Source: Candidatus Woesebacteria bacterium (GTDB taxonomy: Bacteria > Patescibacteriota > Microgenomatia > UBA12405). From it: a stretch of DNA of 64,000 nucleotides. Position 1 is the first letter of the stretch. Every line of letters begins with the position of its first letter. Positions 3,610-52,265 of this stretch are shown one piece after another. A model generated the notes under the pieces. That model was not told the origin of the DNA. It made no database searches and saw only the letters and a list, made by a program, of their open reading frames with translations. A program made the translations under genes and the position numbers. Location: positions 229,111 to 293,110 of the forward strand of contig DAONDY010000002.1 of the NCBI GenBank assembly GCA_035402805.1. Reading direction: 5' to 3'.

Positions 3610-5778
3610 TTAAACTATTTTTTTGCCCCATCTTTGTTGAGAAGTATTTATAAGTTTGGCTCGTTGTTGATTTTTACAGGAAAGTGGGGCTAAAGTAGTG
3701 GCATAAAAAGGTTCGGTAGTTTCTGAGTCTATAGAAAGTTTACAGACAATTTGATATTTCCCAATTTTAATTAAATCTTCAGGAGGGAAGGCAGGTCCAA
3801 ATTCTTTAGCTAAGATAAAAGCATCCTGATTACCAACTACAAAAGACATAATTGAACCGACGTTGCCTAAAATGGCGTCTTGGATAGTTTTGTCGAGCTG
3901 TGACATATATTGGTTGGCGACGATTAAATTTAATTTAAATTTACGAGCTTCAGAAAGAATTTTAATAAAAGCTTCAGTGGCAAAATTTTGGAACTCATCA
4001 ACGTAGAGATAAAAATCGGAACGATCTTCACTGGCTTGAAAAACACGATTCATAGCTGAGAGTTGGATTTGAGTAATTAACATGGCGCCTAATAGAGAAG
4101 AATTATCTTCACCAAGACGACCAGTGGATAAATCAGCAATTAAAATCTTCTTTTGATCCATTATTTCTTGGATATTTATTTTTGATTTAGCATGGGCGAC
4201 AGTATTTCTAATATTTGTTGAAGAAATAAACTGGCCAACTTTATTTAAGATAGGGGAAACAGCTTCGTTTTGGAACTTAGGATCCATGCGATCGAATTCA
4301 TTATGCCAAAAATTAATTAAGGTTTGATTGGTTAATTGAGAGACTGCTTTTTGGCGGAAATTTTTATTAGTTAAAATTTCAACGATATGGGTCATATCGG
4401 ATCCTGGAATATTGACTAGAGTTAAAACGGCATTTCTTAAGATATGTTCAAGACGAGGACCCCAAGAAATATTGCCATAAAGTTTTTTAAAAATTGAAAG
4501 AACACCAGAAGCAATCAATTCTTTTTGATTTTCATTTTTGGCCTCTAAAACATTGAGAGGATAGGCATATTCTGGATCAGCTGGATTAAAATAACAACAA
4601 TCGTTAATACGATTACTAGGAATGTAATCAAGGATGGTATTACATAAATCACCGTGAGGATCGATAACAGCAACGCCTCGACCTTTACGAATATCGTCAA
4701 TGGCCATATTGGCAATTAAAGTTGTTTTACCAGTACCAGATTTACCGATAATGTAGGTATGGCGGCGGCGATCTTCGCCTTGTTTAATACCAAAAATAGA
4801 GTCTTTATTTCTAAATTCAGTTTTAGCAAAAAAAGTAATTTCATTTTTTTGTTCAGGAGTGAGATTATCGGCAATTGGAAGATTTTCTGGCGGATCGGCA
4901 TAAAGTTTCTTACCCCAGGCAATATTGGGAAGCTTGGTATTTTGGTTGGGAAAATGCCAAATGGCGGCTAATTCTTCGGTATTAAATATTTGGCTTTTTA
5001 ACTTGGAATTAAATTTGCGAAGGCAAATAGATTCTCGAAGTTTCTTTTTAGTGAAGAAAACAGGGGTAAAATTTTTAATAAAATTACCACGAGGGTTGGT
5101 GTAGGCACCAAAAGAAGAGGAAACTGAAGAAATAAGTCCGGGATTATTGCTCAAAAGATTAATTTGGGTATAAAGACCGGGAAATTGAATTTTTTGTTCA
5201 AAAATGGCTTTGTCAGGATGGGCGGTACGAATATTTCTTTCTTTATCGACCAAAATGCCATTTTGAATGGTGCCAATAATTCCACTTTGCCAATTTTTGG
5301 GAGCACCGCTTAAAAGAATTTGGAAGAGAAAAAAATCTTTATTGTTATTAGACCTGGAAAGGGGAGCTAAAACGGAAGTTAAAGGATCGGTATCTTTAAA
5401 ATCTTTGGCGGTTTTAGTGGGGTAATCGTAAGATCGGCCTAAACCAAGCTGAGTAAAACTAATGGGTAATTGAGGATCGAGTTCTAAAAGGTAATCTTTG
5501 GTTTCTCGTAAAATAGCAGTGGAATACTGGGCGAGGATTTGGGAACGAAGAAACTCACTATTATTAGAAAGGGCGGCGATATAAAAATGAATTTGGCCAT
5601 CTTTCAAAACTATTTCTAACGAAACAATGGTTTTCTTTTTGCCAATTATTTTTTCAAAAAACGAAAGATTGGAAAATTGGGTGAAATTTGATAAAAGGGC
5701 AGACATCGATTCAAAAGTGTGTTCATTGGTTTGAGGTAGACGAACTTCAAAAATTGAAAGACTGGCAGTGTCAGACAT
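3610..5778 (-). CDS. FtsK/HerA/TraG-superfamily P-loop ATPase, resembling a type IV secretion coupling protein or DUF87
   Basis: Walker A GKSGTGKT is followed by DPHGDL. A Walker B-like YLYVDEFQNF and an ANQYMSQL tail are typical of TraD/VirD4/HerA-like ATPases. No N-terminal TM segments. Confidence 0.5.
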   Translation of the reverse strand: MSDTASLSIFEVRLPQTNEHTFESMSALLSNFTQFSNLSFFEKIIGKKKTIVSLEIVLKDGQIHFYIAALSNNSEFLRSQILAQYSTAILRETKDYLLELDPQLPISFTQLGLGRSYDYPTKTAKDFKDTDPLTSVLAPLSRSNNNKDFFLFQILLSGAPKNWQSGIIGTIQNGILVDKERNIRTAHPDKAIFEQKIQFPGLYTQINLLSNNPGLISSVSSSFGAYTNPRGNFIKNFTPVFFTKKKLRESICLRKFNSKLKSQIFNTEELAAIWHFPNQNTKLPNIAWGKKLYADPPENLPIADNLTPEQKNEITFFAKTEFRNKDSIFGIKQGEDRRRHTYIIGKSGTGKTTLIANMAIDDIRKGRGVAVIDPHGDLCNTILDYIPSNRINDCCYFNPADPEYAYPLNVLEAKNENQKELIASGVLSIFKKLYGNISWGPRLEHILRNAVLTLVNIPGSDMTHIVEILTNKNFRQKAVSQLTNQTLINFWHNEFDRMDPKFQNEAVSPILNKVGQFISSTNIRNTVAHAKSKINIQEIMDQKKILIADLSTGRLGEDNSSLLGAMLITQIQLSAMNRVFQASEDRSDFYLYVDEFQNFATEAFIKILSEARKFKLNLIVANQYMSQLDKTIQDAILGNVGSIMSFVVGNQDAFILAKEFGPAFPPEDLIKIGKYQIVCKLSIDSETTEPFYATTLAPLSCKNQQRAKLINTSQQRWGKKIV

Positions 5779-7335: not shown

Positions 7336-7344
7336 AAATATAAA

Positions 7345-7424
7345 TTTTCGTCACAAATTTTTTATGTCTGATGAATGTGCGGTGCACGTTCAAGGCCATA
7401 AAAAATTATGACTTCAAATTTAAT
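7345..7424. repeat. Copy 1 of a ~85-nt conserved structured repeat element. A second copy lies at 14646-14728.
   Basis: About 85% identity to 14646-14728. AT-rich outer arms (gtcacaaattttttatg / cataaaaaattatgac) enclose an inner stem GAATGTGC-ggt-GCACGTTC. Copy 2 carries a compensatory stem change (GTGG...CCAC). Confidence 0.6.
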
Positions 7425-7473: not shown

Positions 7474-8025
7474 ATGATAAATTTCACCGACGTAAAAACG
7501 AGAATGGAAAAGATTAGTGGTTTATTTGTTAATGACATTGCTTCAATAAGAACAGGTCGAGCTACCCCAGGATTGATTGAAAATGTGGTAGTGACTGTTT
7601 ATGGTGGCCAAAAAATGAAATTAATCGAATTAGGATCGATCGGGGTGCCGGATGTTCGTAGTTTAACTTTTGAAGCTTGGGATCAAACCTTGACTAGAGA
7701 AATTGCTAATGGAATAGCGGCGGCTAATATTGGAATGACACCAGCAGTTGATGGAAATACTATTAGAATGAGTTTGCCAATGTTGACAGTGGAACAGAGA
7801 GAGGATTATATAAAACTTTTAGGGAGAAAATTAGAAGGAGCTAGAGTAATGATTCGTGATGCTAGAGGCGATTTTAGAAATGGTTTACAAAAAGCTAAAA
7901 ACGATAAAACTATTTCCGAAGATGAATTTAAGAAAGATGAAACTGAACTACAAAAAACAACCGACCTTTATATAAATAAATTAGAAGAAATTGCTAAGAA
8001 GAAGGAATTAGAAATAAGGGGCTAA
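7474..8025 (+). CDS. frr: Ribosome recycling factor
   Basis: MINFTDVKTRMEKISGLF...IRTGRATPGLIE aligns with RRF. TATAAT at 7460-7465 lies only 8 nt before the ATG. Confidence 0.9.
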   Translation: MINFTDVKTRMEKISGLFVNDIASIRTGRATPGLIENVVVTVYGGQKMKLIELGSIGVPDVRSLTFEAWDQTLTREIANGIAAANIGMTPAVDGNTIRMSLPMLTVEQREDYIKLLGRKLEGARVMIRDARGDFRNGLQKAKNDKTISEDEFKKDETELQKTTDLYINKLEEIAKKKELEIRG

Positions 8026-14283: not shown

Positions 14284-14638
14284 TTTAATTTTGATAAATC
14301 ATAATAAGAATTGGGGTTTGAATGAAAGTTTGGTTGAAGAACTGGCAAAAAAAGTACTTAAAGAAAAGGGATTTAAACAGAATGTTGAACTGAGTATTTA
14401 TTTTGTAGGAAGAAAAAAGGCTAAGGATTTAAATGTAAATTATCGAAAGATGGGCTATATACCTCAAGTTTTGGGTTTTCCAATGTCAAAAGAAAAAGAT
14501 GCGGATGGAATAATCAGATTGGGTGATATTGTAATTTGTACTCAAAAATTAAAGTATGAAATAAAATTTCAAAAATCGAATTTAGATACTGTTTTATACA
14601 GTTGGTTGATTCATGGAGTTGAAAATTTATTAAAGTAG
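14276..14638 (+). CDS. YbeY-like endoribonuclease homolog. It is C-terminally truncated and lacks the His triad, so it may be degenerate.
   Basis: GDIVICTQ...SWLIHGVENLLK* aligns with YbeY GDLVIC...HMVVHGSLHLLGYDH. The second His is replaced by Asn and the third is absent. The stop abuts repeat copy 2. Confidence 0.55.
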   Translation: MDNLILINHNKNWGLNESLVEELAKKVLKEKGFKQNVELSIYFVGRKKAKDLNVNYRKMGYIPQVLGFPMSKEKDADGIIRLGDIVICTQKLKYEIKFQKSNLDTVLYSWLIHGVENLLK

Positions 14639-14645
14639 TTTTAAA

Positions 14646-14728
14646 TTTTTGTCACAGAATTTTTTATGTCTGGTGAATGTGGTCGCCCACGTTCAAGGCC
14701 ATAAAAAATTGTGACTTCAAATTTAAAT
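14646..14728. repeat. Copy 2 of the ~85-nt structured repeat element
   Basis: gtcacagaattttttatg...GAATGTGG-tcgc-CCACGTTC...cataaaaaattgtgac with conserved flanks. Lies between the truncated ybeY-like gene and dnaX. Confidence 0.6.
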
Positions 14729-33128: not shown

Positions 33129-33911
33129 ATGTCAAAAAGACTCAAATATTTTATTTCATCATTATTAGCTAGTGTTGGTTTTTATTTCTTTTTAGCCTTA
33201 CCATATGAATCCCATTATTACGGTTTATTGATAGGGATAGTATTGATAATTTTCTGTTTTTGGTTTGGATTGGGGATTGTTTTTGATAAAAGTATTTTTA
33301 TCAGATTAATCTCAATTGTGTTGCCGGTGGGTTTTTTTGTAGGTTTTGCCTTGTTTGTGACGTTATTACCACAGACTTTATTTTTAAGTTTAATTTATAG
33401 CTTATTTTTCGGCATAATACTTTATGTCATGTTTTTAGTAGAAAATGTTTTTTTGGTGGCAATTGGATTTAGAACTCCGCCCTTATATAGGGCAGCCTAT
33501 ACAGTTGGTTTAATTTTATTATTATTAACTTCTTTCTTTTTATTTGACAGCCTTTTTTCTTTCAAATTTATTTATTGGTTAAATGTTTTGCTGGTTTTAG
33601 TGATTTCAATGGTGATTTTTATATATGTATTTTTTAGTGTAACAATAGAACTGCCGGATGATGGAAAGGATAAAAATATTTGGTATTACATAATAACTCC
33701 GTCGCTTTTGATGTCAGAAGTGGCTTTGGTTTTAAGTTTTTGGCCAGTTGGAATTTTTAAAGGGTCTATTTATTTGGTAATGATGGTTTATATATTTAGT
33801 GGTTTGATGCATGCTGAATTGAGAGACAGATTGTTTAAAAAAACTTGGTTAATTTTTGTTTGGGTGGGAGTGGCGACAATTTTAGGAATTATTTTGACTG
33901 GATTGACGTAA
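33129..33911 (+). CDS. Hypothetical polytopic membrane protein
   Basis: Multiple hydrophobic segments. No recognisable motif. Confidence 0.35.
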   Translation: MSKRLKYFISSLLASVGFYFFLALPYESHYYGLLIGIVLIIFCFWFGLGIVFDKSIFIRLISIVLPVGFFVGFALFVTLLPQTLFLSLIYSLFFGIILYVMFLVENVFLVAIGFRTPPLYRAAYTVGLILLLLTSFFLFDSLFSFKFIYWLNVLLVLVISMVIFIYVFFSVTIELPDDGKDKNIWYYIITPSLLMSEVALVLSFWPVGIFKGSIYLVMMVYIFSGLMHAELRDRLFKKTWLIFVWVGVATILGIILTGLT

Positions 33912-34812
33912 TAGCAACGGTAGTAATAATGTCTTGAACATTACAACCTCTAGAGAGATCATTTATGGGTTTTTTAATGCCTTGTGTAAGAGGGCCGCAG
34001 GCGTTAATACCAGCAATTCTTTCGACTAATTTATAGGCAATATTGCCAGAGTCTAAATTAGGAAAAATTAAGATATTAGCTTGACCGCCAATACAATTTC
34101 CGGGGAATTTAAGGTCACAAACGCGAGGAACTAAAGCAGAATCAGATTGTAATTCACCTTCGATGATTAAATCAGGGTTTATTTGTTTGGCAATGAGGGT
34201 AGCTTGTTTAACCTTATCGACGGATTCTCCTTTGCCGCTACCGTTAGTAGAATAGGAAAGCATGGCGATTCTGGGAATCTTTTGAGTTAGGTCTTTAAAT
34301 GAGTTGGCGGTTTGAATGGCAATTTCGGCAAGTTCTTCGGCATTTGGATTAACATTTATTCCACAATCAGCGAAAAATAATAGCCCATTTTCACCTAAAT
34401 TTTGATTATTAGTTTCAATAACAAAAAAACTAGAAATTAATTTTGAATTTTTGGCAGTTTTAATAATTTGAAGAGCGGGAAGAACTGTTTGCAGGGTAGT
34501 GTGGTTAGCACCAGCCACCATACCATCGGCCAGGCCAGAATGAACCATCATGGTGCCAAAATATAGAGGATCTTTAGATAAAATTTTAGCTTGATCTAAA
34601 GTTAATCCTTTTTCTTTTCGGAGTTCAAAAAGGGTTTGGGTGAATTGATCTTGATATTGGGAATAGGGAAGATTAGTGATAATATCGGCAATTTTTTGAT
34701 CTCGGATAATTTTAGCGGCTTCGATAATTCGATCATCGTCTATTTCTGGTAAAACAATTTTTTTATATTTTTGTTTAGCTTGTTGATAGATATTTTCAAT
34801 AATCGGATTCAT
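33889..34812 (-). CDS. pta: Phosphate acetyl/butyryl-transferase
   Basis: Pta-family C-terminal half. The GELQ.D.A segment is typical. Confidence 0.7.
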   Translation of the reverse strand: MNPIIENIYQQAKQKYKKIVLPEIDDDRIIEAAKIIRDQKIADIITNLPYSQYQDQFTQTLFELRKEKGLTLDQAKILSKDPLYFGTMMVHSGLADGMVAGANHTTLQTVLPALQIIKTAKNSKLISSFFVIETNNQNLGENGLLFFADCGINVNPNAEELAEIAIQTANSFKDLTQKIPRIAMLSYSTNGSGKGESVDKVKQATLIAKQINPDLIIEGELQSDSALVPRVCDLKFPGNCIGGQANILIFPNLDSGNIAYKLVERIAGINACGPLTQGIKKPINDLSRGCNVQDIITTVAITSIQSK

Positions 34813-35045
34813 GTAGATAGTATATCTTAATTTAATTAAATTAGGTTTATGTTGTAATTTATCCTAAAAATAGGCAATATTTAATTAGAGAAGGGGAAGA
34901 CAGGGGAATATTTTAGTTTCATATATGGGTCTTTAAATATATGTAAAAATAAAAATACAGCTAAGGTTTAAAGGTTAAATCAACTGAATATTTTGAAGCT
35001 AAGTTAGGTTCAAAAAAAAGATGAAGGAACAGGGTGGAGGGGAGT

Positions 35046-35112
35046 CCTATAATATGTAAAAGATCCTATAATATTTTCACGAATTATCCTATAGTTTTCA
35101 CGGAGCAGGTGA
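35046..35112. promoter_or_regulatory. Three tandem imperfect ~22-bp direct repeats (TCCTATA[AT]AT[TTTTCACGRA]), iteron-like
   Basis: agtcctataatatgtaaaaga / atcctataatattttcacgaatt / atcctatagttttcacggagc. A DnaA-box-like tgtggaaaa and an AT-rich tract (35195-35250) follow. Confidence 0.4.
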
Positions 35113-35286
35113 TACAGTATGATATAGTCCCTGTGGAAAACTTATTTTTAGCCGAGTGTATCAAAATGAACCTGACGAGAGGGAGGAGGAAGGATTAATT
35201 AGAAGTTAATTAATAGTTTAGTAATTAATAATTAGATAAAAATACACAGAGGGAGGATAGTAGTTTTAATTCCTATCTCCTAGCAG

Positions 35287-35338
35287 AAGGAGGTTAAATA
35301 TGCTATGTCGCACAATGTATCTTTTGCGACTCTATTAA
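35287..35338 (+). other. Strong Shine-Dalgarno (AAGGAGG) plus a 12-codon mini-ORF (MLCRTMYLLRLY) inside the ORF-free region
   Basis: aaggaggttaaatATG...taa. Preceded by a hairpin (ggaggatag...ctatctcc). Most genes in this window lack strong SD sequences. Confidence 0.3.
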
Positions 35339-35660
35339 AAGATTTAACCAGGGGGAGTACTGTTTTAGTAAATTAATTTTTGGTTTTAAATTTCCAATTT
35401 TTAGTCTCTGTTTTTATTTGATTATTTTTATTTATTAATTTAATTAAATTCCCCATTTAGCCTTCCGGCTTGGATTTTGGATTTATTAAGAAGAAATTTT
35501 AAAATTTGACTCCCCTATACCTTTTTAAGGCGGGAGACTTTGGGTATTGTGCCTAAAGATAGGCAAAATGAACCTAAAACACTACCAGAGCCCCTAGAAA
35601 TGAAGATCTAAAAAATACCGGATACTTTTACCTCTTATTTATTAAATTGTTTGTAAGGTC

Positions 35661-41898: not shown

Positions 41899-41984
41899 TC
41901 AATTCTAGCAGAGAAAAACAGCTTTACAATAAGCAAATAATACGTATCTTTAGGGTAAAATTACTATATATAAAATGCCTAAAA

Positions 41985-42527
41985 TTAGGCATTTTTTGAT
42001 GTTGATTTAGAAATAACATCAAAACTGATAATTGAAGTAGCAACTAAAACATTCATGGAAATATTTATCCCAAACATAGGGATTTCTACAACTTTATCAA
42101 CTAACTTTAAAACTTCTTTTGAGATTCCAAAAGATTCACTACCGGCAATTATGGCAACGGGAAATTTATATTTAGCTTTTAGATAATTAACACTATCCTT
42201 GGTTTGTTCACAAGCAACAATTTGATAGCCATTTTTTTTAAGTTGTTGAATGCAATCCTTAGTATTTTGGCATTGTTCCCAGGGAACCCATTTCCAGGTA
42301 CCAATTGAGGCTCGATGAATTTTAATGTTGGGAGGAGTGACAACTGGTCCACAAAGATAAATTTTTTTGACGGCCAAAGCATCGGCTAATCTAAAAAAGG
42401 AACCAATGTTATAAGTATCTAAAACATTGTCTAATACTAAAACAATTGGGTTACGTTTAATTTCTTTTTGTAATTTTTGTGATTCCCCTATTCTTGATTT
42501 GCGGATTTGGTGAGAATTTAATTTCAT
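41985..42527 (-). CDS. SpoU/TrmH-family RNA 2'-O-methyltransferase
   Basis: SPOUT motifs: NIGSFFRLADALAV, AIIAGSES, and IPMFGINISMNVLVATSI. Confidence 0.75.
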   Translation of the reverse strand: MKLNSHQIRKSRIGESQKLQKEIKRNPIVLVLDNVLDTYNIGSFFRLADALAVKKIYLCGPVVTPPNIKIHRASIGTWKWVPWEQCQNTKDCIQQLKKNGYQIVACEQTKDSVNYLKAKYKFPVAIIAGSESFGISKEVLKLVDKVVEIPMFGINISMNVLVATSIISFDVISKSTSKNA

Positions 42528-51635: not shown

Positions 51636-52136
51636 TTAAAATTTTTTGATTTCTTCAAAAATTTTGGGAGTAATGGAAGATATTATAGTGGATTCTTCTT
51701 GAGAAAAGTTTTGGAGGACGTAATCTTCGACAGGAATATTATTTTGAGGTTTGCCGATGCCAACGCGAAGGCGATAAAACTCTTGGGTTCCTAACTGATC
51801 AATTATTGACTTAATGCCATTATGTCCGGCTGAGCCTCGGTCAAATTGAAGACGATATTCCCCTGCTGGTAAATCAAGATCGTCGTGAATTATCAAGATG
51901 TCATTGGCAGAAATTTTATAAAATTGAGAAATTTTTTGGACGGCGATGCCAGAATTGTTCATATATTCGTTAGGAACGGCAAAAATTTTATTTTTGTCTT
52001 CAAAAATTTGGGCGGATAATTTTGTTTTGTTGAAAAATTTTTGATCAATCAAATTTTTAATTAAAGTTGAACCAAGATTGTGACGGTTTTTTTGGTACTT
52101 TTTGTCTGGATTACCTAGACCGACGATTAGTTTCAT
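51636..52136 (-). CDS. pth: Peptidyl-tRNA hydrolase
   Basis: MKLIVGLGNPDKKYQKNRHN signature. Confidence 0.9.
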   Translation of the reverse strand: MKLIVGLGNPDKKYQKNRHNLGSTLIKNLIDQKFFNKTKLSAQIFEDKNKIFAVPNEYMNNSGIAVQKISQFYKISANDILIIHDDLDLPAGEYRLQFDRGSAGHNGIKSIIDQLGTQEFYRLRVGIGKPQNNIPVEDYVLQNFSQEESTIISSITPKIFEEIKKF

Positions 52137-52265
52137 AAATTATTCTAACATTATATTTTTGATATATATAATAGTATATATATAGTATAAAGATATATAA
52201 TGATATTTATTTATACCTAAAGATAGGGAAAAGTAGAAAAAGTATTATAATTAGCAGTCAACTGG

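Follow-up and report, generated by a model that had tools for sequence, protein, structure and literature searches.

What is the role of a long gap without genes that lies beside a gene for site-specific recombination? We addressed this question in a 64,000-nucleotide stretch of a Candidatus Woesebacteria genome (GenBank assembly GCA_035402805.1, contig DAONDY010000002.1, positions 229,111 to 293,110), hereafter called the window. Between pta (33889-34812, minus strand) and a gene for a Xer-family tyrosine recombinase (plus strand) lie about 870 bp in which no open reading frame (ORF) reaches 60 amino acids. The longest is a 54-amino-acid frame with a GTG start (35034-35198), and public gene calls for 16 contigs of the same genome place no gene in the gap. 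An earlier note on this DNA had described the gap as free of ORFs, had listed repeats, a DnaA-box-like site and a mini-ORF within it, and had suggested an origin-like or partition locus, sites for the adjacent recombinase, or a gene for a noncoding RNA. The gap and all of the listed elements were present in the sequence, with small corrections of coordinates. We find that a large group of uncultured bacteria has about 590 bp of the gap in conserved form. The 28-bp sequence at the heart of this conserved DNA is probably an Xer-binding core, and we give an even chance to the broader reading that the locus is a single-recombinase Xer module with its core set in conserved accessory or regulatory DNA.

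A conserved element between pta and xer

Comparison with the homologous locus in related genomes, a check that the earlier note had proposed, delimited the conserved element. In six relatives retrieved with Pta, BLASTN and nhmmer aligned about 590 bp (approximately 35026-35612 of the window) at 70-77% identity with interspersed perfect blocks; the initial ~215 bp of the gap were unconserved in the same relatives. The conserved blocks alternate with A/T-rich inserts of variable length.

The most conserved block is the 24-mer GTCGCACAATGTANCTTTTNCGAC (35307-35330). At least 119 metagenome contigs, which stem from groundwater, sludge and sediment and were all retrieved with the 24-mer itself, contain an exact match, and about 45 of these listed contigs could be aligned across most of the 590 bp. 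Only nine loci spanning the site were obtained independently of the motif, through either Pta (L001-L004 and L006) or the recombinase (L137-L140). The 22 specified bases of the 24-mer are identical in all nine, compared with only 70-77% identity over the remaining gap. All carriers, both the metagenome contigs and the nine relatives, belong to the Candidate Phyla Radiation (CPR). The 24-mer had no match in viral contigs, and an origin from a phage or mobile element was rejected on this ground.

A proposed dif-like core site

The 24-mer is embedded in a 28-bp imperfect palindrome, ATGTCGCACAA + TGTATC + TTTTGCGAC(AT), which consists of two near-inverse 11-bp arms and a 6-bp center. Either arm is nearly the inverse of its partner (GTCGCACAA versus GTCGCAAAA as read on the opposite strand). 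Pairing between outer positions 3-6 and positions 23-26 is seen in four cases out of four, and between inner positions 7-12 and positions 17-22 in four cases out of six (C-G, A-T, A-T, A-T and two mismatches). Internally, only central position 5 and one base of the right arm vary. With up to five mismatches allowed, the window holds a single copy, and there is one copy per locus in the roughly 1 Mb of locus DNA examined.

The layout is that of dif sites, and we compared the core with six published or predicted dif sequences, all taken from the text and supplement of one paper. The core matches them at 16-21 of 28 positions in register, and five of them at 18-21 positions; the sites of Escherichia coli, Shewanella, Leptospira and Lactobacillus casei are included in this higher range. 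Sequences given in the supplement of Kono et al. 2011 (PMC3025954) for Shewanella (GCTGCGCACAATGTATATTATGTTAAAT) and for chromosome I of Leptospira borgpetersenii (ACTTCCCATAATGTATCTTATGTCACAT) share with the core, respectively, the 12-nucleotide run CGCACAATGTAT, which spans arm and central region in register, and the string AATGTATCTT. Among approximately 128,000 window positions, 11 reach at least 19 of 28 matches to any of the six sites. A match of this level is thus not unique in such an A+T-rich window, but it would be unlikely for a site already picked out by its conservation. The suggestion that the gap carries sites for the adjacent recombinase is thus supported in modified form: the linked, conserved heart of the element resembles a core-type Xer/dif site rather than arm sites.

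Linkage to a Xer-family recombinase gene

The recombinase has the Pfam Phage_integrase domain and a SAM-like N-terminal domain. Its NCBIfam scores are 238 bits for XerC, 232 bits for XerD and 213.5 bits for XerA, each below the respective equivalog cutoff (220 bits for XerA), and the XerS model gives 130 bits against a cutoff of 267. The equal XerC and XerD scores, together with the near-threshold XerA score, fit a single, unspecialized Xer protein, and the palindromic outer arms of the core likewise suggest one recombinase. No second recombinase gene was found in the scanned parts of the window, which did not cover every ORF.

The core and the gene are neighbors in most genomes for which this could be judged. 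Seventy-one of the listed motif-bearing loci had at least 1.5 kb of downstream sequence, and in 50 of these a same-strand Xer homologue (48-90% identical) starts 289-1,343 bp past the core. The same linkage is present in nine relatives retrieved without the motif. Close homologues lie on long public contigs, with the locus at about 270 kb in JAQWEN010000001.1 (735 kb) and at about 36 kb in Ga0395526_000001 (1.12 Mb). In relatives where the recombinase is 87-91% identical, Pta is 70% identical. The closest relatives of Pta are found in metagenome-assembled genomes of Ca. Shapirobacteria (62-70% identity), and the usual gene order is yebC, DUF5656, the element, xer and then gyrA on the opposite strand. 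Since an extra gene separates the element from pta in the Pta-retrieved relatives, the element travels with the recombinase side and not with pta. A dif site adjoining a xer gene is a possible hallmark of single-recombinase systems, as in XerS/difSL and XerH/difH (PMC5357621).

Organization of the flanks

The features of the gap and of the recombinase gene are as follows, with the strand given where one applies.

34863-34880: left copy of a CCTA palindrome, CCTAAAAATAGG(CAATAT), which precedes the start codon of pta by 51-68 bp
35026-35044: left edge of the element, a G-rich block, CAGGGTGGAGGGGAGTC, with GGGGAGT at 35039; conservation begins here in six genomes and in the metagenome loci
35045-35102: block of repeated motifs, with TCCTATAAT at 35045 and 35064 and in the form TCCTATAG at 35087, and TTTTCACG at 35074 and 35095
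35110-35128, plus strand: doublet TGATACAGT / TGATATAGT, nearly invariant across the family
35132-35140, minus strand: DnaA-box-like 9-mer, TTTTCCACA here and TTATCCACA in most relatives
35178-35257: purine motifs AGAGGGAGGA at 35178 and 35248 and an A+T-rich tract at about 35195-35245
35272-35296: pyrimidine-then-purine inverted repeat CCTATCTCCTAGCAGAAGGAGG, including the "perfect" Shine-Dalgarno (SD) sequence AAGGAGG at 35287-35293
35305-35332: proposed Xer core site in an 11-6-11 layout, ATGTCGCACAA / TGTATC / TTTTGCGACTC, overlapping the 12-codon mini-ORF
35350-35516: right flank, with GGGGGAGT at 35351-35358, a T-rich tract at 35363-35447 and TTGACTCCCCT at 35506-35516
35552-35612: right CCTA palindrome CCTAAAGATAGG and conserved tail CAAAATGAACCTAAAAC..CCAGAGCCCCTAGAAATGAAG, a unit that is duplicated in L139
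35661-35688, plus strand: the recombinase gene's proximal promoter, TTGGCA-16-TAAGAT, in which a TG precedes the -10 element; conserved in L137
35694-36638, plus strand: gene for the Xer-family tyrosine recombinase, 314 amino acids from ATG 35694; relatives are 72-91% identical

Translation of the recombinase most likely starts at ATG 35694, on a leaderless mRNA behind the gene's own promoter.

The left flank had been described as carrying three tandem repeats of about 22 bp. The repeated motifs are present and conserved in relatives: TCCTATAATAT occurs at 35045 and 35064, CCTATAA at 35046 and 35065, CCTATAG at 35088 and TTTTCAC at 35074 and 35095, and the two copies of TTTTCACG are 21 bp apart. 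Tandem Repeats Finder, on the other hand, calls no array at 35045-35102. Depending on the clade, CCTATAA is direct, inverted or palindromic. The second copy of the doublet, TGATATAGT at 35120-35128, fits the extended -10 form of this genome, TGnTATAAT, which we derived from nine gene-proximal promoters in the window. It may act as a promoter, in which case its start site would fall on the DnaA box.

The DnaA-box-like site, TGTGGAAAA, is where it had been described, at 35132-35140, and the same position in relatives is usually occupied by TGTGGATAA, a perfect DnaA box; as a recurrent motif of the family it reads TGTGGA(T/A)AA. With seven occurrences of TTWTCCACA in the window against 2.5 expected, such a site carries little weight on its own. 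Across the family, 88 of the 117 listed loci have a DnaA-type 9-mer no more than 400 bp from the core, at a density of 1.02 per kb compared with 0.05 per kb further out, or about 20-fold. These 88 loci contain 92 boxes; that is, there is usually one per locus. Loci from outside Microgenomates carry the box on the opposite side of the core and in reversed orientation.

Between the box and the core, the purine motif AGAGGGAGGA occurs only at 35178 and 35248 in the entire window (0.09 occurrences expected). Both copies agree with the earlier description, but the tract between them is about 88% A+T and not A+T only; its sequence varies among relatives and its composition is kept. Pyrimidine-rich/purine-rich inverted repeats are found near the position of 35272-35296 in different clades, each with a sequence of its own that cannot be aligned in register. 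The hairpin, SD sequence and 12-codon ORF (35300-35338) that had been pointed out are all present. The ORF, in contrast, is unconserved (its start is ATG or TTG, and its stop moves), the invariant part being the 24-nucleotide palindrome, and a small protein was rejected for this reason. A possible leaderless GTG ORF at 35133 was likewise rejected, as it is not conserved among relatives.

On the right, TTGACTCCCCT is the inverse of the GGGGAGT motif, so the G-rich motifs are inverted across the core. A KOPS-like role for GGGGAGT was considered and rejected, since GGGGAGT shows no consistent polarity with respect to the core (one copy is reversed) and its frequency in the window is ordinary.

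The 18-bp direct repeat that had been taken to bracket the region is real (34863-34880 and 35552-35569, 89% identical), with the right copy at 35552 and not at 35556. Both copies are palindromes of the form CCTA-N4-TAGG. The same form precedes gyrB (at 41978) and a gene with its start at 52136 (at 52216), and in relatives it also precedes gyrA, which makes it a promoter-linked motif and not a boundary of the element. The left copy is a promoter-linked motif outside the widely conserved element; it is retained in the close relative L137 and is unconserved in L001-L004, where another gene occupies that side. In a wider form, CCTA-N3-5-TAGG, often followed by CAAAAT, the palindrome precedes pta, xer, gyrB, gyrA and another gene by 50-125 bp. 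In L001-L006, L037 and L101, its position relative to the core is about +1290 to +1470. One regulator common to these genes could use it as an operator. In L139 (Ga0395526_000001), the unit composed of the CCTA..TAGG palindrome and AAAATGAACCTAAGAC..CACCAGAGCCCCTA is doubled, with an insertion of ~300 bp between the copies and a core-xer interval of ~300 bp.

Flanking direct repeats were also considered as ends of the element and were rejected: they do not generally co-occur and are real only in some loci from outside Microgenomates, in the form GAAC-N7-GAAC. In L068, L102, L105, L085, L077 and L135, which belong to other CPR lineages and carry the site near an ftsQ-like gene, direct copies of GAACAAAAATAGAAC or GAACAAAAACCGAAC, which have this form, stand on either side of the 24-mer and are absent from the rest of each locus. 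In L068, L102 and L105, their positions relative to the core are about -200 to -265 and +390 to +420. The alphaproteobacterial LexA box also has the form GAAC-N7-GAAC.

Strand bias across the element

GC skew is positive over the whole window, ranging from 0.2 to 0.45 in 2-kb windows. At four-fold degenerate sites, the plus-strand skew to the left of the element is 0.34 in plus-strand genes and 0.84 in minus-strand genes; the corresponding values to the right are 0.26 and 0.78. The skew at these sites is the same in sign and size on either side, and thus the replication-linked bias is unchanged across the element. Strongly skewed 7-mers also favor the plus strand on both sides, and no switch in strand bias was found around the core from -35 kb to +29 kb. 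Skew over the window, skew in the flanks of the loci and skew at four-fold sites were all examined. The genes on both sides are directed toward the element, and neither dnaA nor dnaN is among the scanned genes of the window.

These results do not bear out an origin or partition locus, which the earlier note had proposed: the skew has the same sign on both sides, there is a single DnaA-type box and not the cluster expected of oriC, the flanking genes converge, and dnaA and dnaN are absent from the scanned window genes. The element is not a replication origin or terminus.

Search for a structured RNA

Rfam 15 gave no match at the element when the window and 31 related loci were scanned at the gathering threshold. 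A scan of the region at E values of up to 10 returned only noise, and the matches across all scans were tRNAs and one unrelated riboswitch. ARAGORN found no tmRNA. RNase P RNA (P4 and J18/2 motifs) and the tag region of tmRNA were compared with the element and rejected because order and partners do not fit.

Folding gave little sign of structure. Single-sequence folds have z scores of about -1, and minimum free energy (MFE) z scores for the segment from the DnaA-like box to the C-rich motif average -0.7 on the plus strand and -1.6 on the minus strand over 48 family members. RNAalifold, run on 22 sequences, predicts 31 pairs over about 590 nucleotides at -13 kcal/mol, of which covariation contributes -0.8. 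Two-sided changes affect three pairs of this structure, compared with 1.7 in shuffled alignments (99 of 500 reach three) and three to six in slid controls. Beside the 24-mer, Watson-Crick pairing at five flanking position pairs is as frequent as expected from shuffles, and a 112-nucleotide alignment around the core contains only four invariant pairs. The inverted repeats of the right flank are invariant and hence carry no covariation information. Alifold energies calculated per clade are similar on both strands, and no credible consensus structure emerged from the single-sequence, per-clade, 112-nucleotide or full-element folds.

The substitutions also fail to point to one transcribed strand. 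Read on the plus strand, a pair in the stem of the 24-mer is C-G or C.A (C.A in 38 of 111 variants), and a pair in another small palindrome is G-C or G.U; the two signals are at odds as to the strand. Moreover, the orientation of CCTATAA and of the DnaA box flips between clades, which is easy for protein-binding DNA and hard for RNA. With no Rfam match, covariation no higher than in controls and weak fold z scores, the structured RNA gene suggested in the earlier note is not supported. The flanks behave as conserved DNA, not as structured RNA.

Comparison with known Xer systems

Canonical dif, the substrate of XerC/XerD, has in common with the core the 11-6-11 layout, single-copy occurrence (in the roughly 1 Mb examined) and the sequence CGCACAA/TGTAT, which is shared with gammaproteobacterial dif. 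Unlike canonical dif, the core has palindromic outer arms and lies off the point at which GC skew shifts, and skewed oligomers keep their polarity across it.

The difSL and difH sites of single-recombinase systems lie at the terminus of replication. XerS/difSL of streptococci and lactococci and XerH/difH of Helicobacter and Campylobacter resemble the locus in that one Xer gene is found near a near-palindromic core, and both systems depend on FtsK (PMC5357621). The core is distinguished from difSL, which has an 11-bp central region and different arms, by its classical spacing of 6 bp and by an arm of the XerC type that looks classical, and XerS itself is only a weak match to the window recombinase. 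In contrast to difSL and difH, the core is accompanied by no strand-bias switch and by ~500 bp of conserved flanks. Archaeal XerA is a single recombinase that acts without FtsK; its dif site is reported from the terminus region, and xerA is variable in position and unlinked to the site (PMC5357621). The window recombinase comes just short of the XerA cutoff, but it belongs to a bacterial lineage and its gene is linked to the site.

The plasmid sites cer (ColE1) and psi (pSC101), which together with XerS/difSL are the nearest analogues of the proposed module, have a 28- to 30-bp core inside a longer noncoding region, and cer is the closest precedent for this arrangement. In both plasmid sites, accessory DNA is found on the XerC-arm side of the core; the strongest conserved block of the element (35045-35140) is on the XerC-like arm side and holds the promoter-like element. 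cer, a noncoding Xer site of 280 bp, has a core of 30 bp and ~180 bp of accessory DNA, and the small RNA Rcd is made from its internal promoter, Pcer; the reaction at cer and psi requires accessory DNA and is independent of FtsK and of chromosomal position (PMC5357621). Unlike cer and psi, the site described here is chromosomal, single-copy in the DNA examined and conserved across a phylum-level group, and its flanks are conserved on both sides.

Proposed function and alternatives

In the mechanism that we propose, two to four copies of the Xer recombinase, encoded ~360 bp downstream, would bind at 35305-35332 and exchange strands within the central 6 bp. The recombinase presumably both binds and cuts this core. 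The 250-300 bp on each side would be accessory or regulatory DNA bound by host proteins, a role that we read from conservation; they carry the DnaA box, the extended -10-like element pointing to the core, the CCTATAA and TTTTCACG repeats and the inverted G-rich motifs. Such DNA could set the timing of recombination or restrict it to sites on one molecule, as in cer and psi. The reaction itself would be chromosome dimer resolution or decatenation.

Several observations weigh against this reading. The core lies away from the terminus and the skew shift point, with no strand-bias switch from -35 kb to +29 kb, although predicted bacterial dif sites fall within ~3% of the genome length of the shift point (PMC3025954). 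Its four inner-arm pairs out of six are below the "more than four" complementary pairs used as a criterion for dif by Kono et al. 2011 (PMC3025954). The identity scan is not unique for the core, as two other window positions reach 20 of 28. The invariance of the 24-mer across the metagenome loci follows from its use for their retrieval. In about 19 of the 71 listed loci, which come from other CPR lineages, the 24-mer is present but the sequence examined holds no xer gene. On the minus strand, the element as it stands in the window folds somewhat better than shuffled sequences (z = -3.1), so a transcript is conceivable. No accessory protein was identified, and neither were sites of the ArgR, PepA or ArcA type. 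We know of no chromosomal dif site that requires hundreds of conserved flanking bases.

Three other explanations have to be set against an Xer module. The core always lies in an ORF-free island of at least 600 nucleotides, even where no xer gene is adjacent, and its conserved blocks alternate with A/T-rich inserts of variable length, as might be expected of a CPR-specific noncoding RNA gene of ~400-600 nucleotides in which the 24-mer forms a hairpin with a 12-nucleotide recognition loop and xer is linked through gene order or joint action. Local inverted repeats that keep their place and change their sequence across clades, some one-sided G-C to G-U changes on the plus strand, the extended -10-like element ~175 nucleotides upstream of the core and the minus-strand MFE z scores (mean of -1.6, and -3.1 in the window) are in line with such a gene. 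Still, we regard it as unlikely given the lack of Rfam matches at the gathering threshold or at E values of up to 10, the mere 31 pairs in ~590 nucleotides with -0.8 kcal/mol from covariation, compensatory changes at the level of controls and a hairpin stem with no covariation-backed extension. The strand signals conflict (C.A in 38 of 111 variants versus G.U, with alifold energies alike on both strands), CCTATAA and the DnaA box are turned round with respect to the core from clade to clade, and the resemblance to dif would be left unexplained. A DnaA-dependent replication element, be it oriC, a secondary origin or a titrating or reactivating locus of the datA/DARS type with the A+T tract as unwinding element, appears very improbable. 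It would account for the perfect or near-perfect boxes within 400 bp of the core (88 of 117 listed loci), the TTTTCAC(G/A) repeats that are similar to weak boxes, the A+T-rich tract adjoining the box and the proximity of dnaB, gyrA, gyrB and topA. What it would not account for is the unchanged strand bias, the orientation of genes toward the element from both sides (the opposite of an origin), the prevalence of one box per locus (92 in 88) and the absence of dnaA and dnaN from the scanned window genes, and it leaves the dif-like core and the xer linkage without a role.

Alternatively, the element could be a dense transcription-control region and not a recombination site, in which regulators and DnaA control xer and its neighbors through the palindromes CCTA..TAGG and GTCGCA-N12-TGCGAC and the TTTTCACG repeats. 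CCTA-N4-TAGG is indeed found upstream of pta, xer, gyrB and another gene, and of gyrA in relatives; -10-like elements are present, one of them with a predicted start site that coincides with the DnaA box, and the orientation of the motifs is flexible. Yet xer has a proximal promoter of its own and a leaderless mRNA, the core-xer distance varies from 289 to 1,343 bp, sometimes with other genes in between, and in other lineages the core lies between convergent genes, where there is nothing to regulate. It would also be unusual for an operator to be kept at 22 of 24 positions in lineages with nothing else in common. For these reasons we find a purely regulatory role quite unlikely.

Should the Xer module be confirmed, it would provide a concrete core site for a CPR Xer recombinase, with the 24-mer marking the locus in at least 119 contigs, and would extend single-recombinase, site-linked modules beyond Firmicutes and Epsilonproteobacteria. 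In the literature searched, we found no description of chromosome dimer resolution in CPR bacteria, nothing on noncoding RNAs, RNase P RNA, dif sites or oriC of CPR, and nothing relevant on structured RNAs in Patescibacteria. A tempting false lead is removed as well, in that the region is no origin and a structured RNA gene is unsupported. The puzzle posed by the locus is a nonterminal core within a long conserved flank that carries a DnaA box. One speculative answer, which we consider a long shot, is that Xer recombination in CPR bacteria takes place at a chromosomal site without terminus or FtsK-type positioning, selectivity and timing being provided by ~500 bp of conserved accessory DNA with its DnaA box and internal promoter. 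If so, a chromosome would be subject to a cer-like topological or regulatory filter, which might couple dimer resolution or decatenation to the replication initiator.

Other features of the window

Extended -10 elements (TGnTATAAT) lie 6-15 nucleotides before start codons or a tRNA 5' end, for example at 7474, 20301, 29559 and 36697; further gene starts of this kind are at 42527, 43897, 55346 and elsewhere. Their closeness to the start codons suggests that most transcripts are leaderless or have very short leaders; for promoters with the element 6-7 nucleotides ahead of the start codon, leaderless mRNAs are implied. Several of these elements are directly preceded by the terminator-like GC hairpin and T-run of the upstream gene.

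An intergenic element of ~70 nucleotides is present in two copies (7336-7410 and 14636-14710; 87% identical) upstream of the genes starting at 7474 and 14711. Neither copy had an Rfam match above noise. The copies have an outer inverted repeat, TTTTTTATG...CATAAAAAA, and an inner hairpin that is GTGC..GCAC in one and GTGG..CCAC in the other, a seemingly compensatory change.

The presence of an FtsK translocase in this genome would bear on the control of Xer recombination. A 722-amino-acid ATPase (3610-5778, minus strand) weakly matches coupling proteins of the VirD4/TraD type as well as HerA/DUF87, and it is not a clear FtsK. Genes for DnaB, both gyrase subunits and TopA are also close by in the window, and gyrA, gyrB and 11 other genes at 37-56 kb are oriented head-on to the inferred direction of replication.

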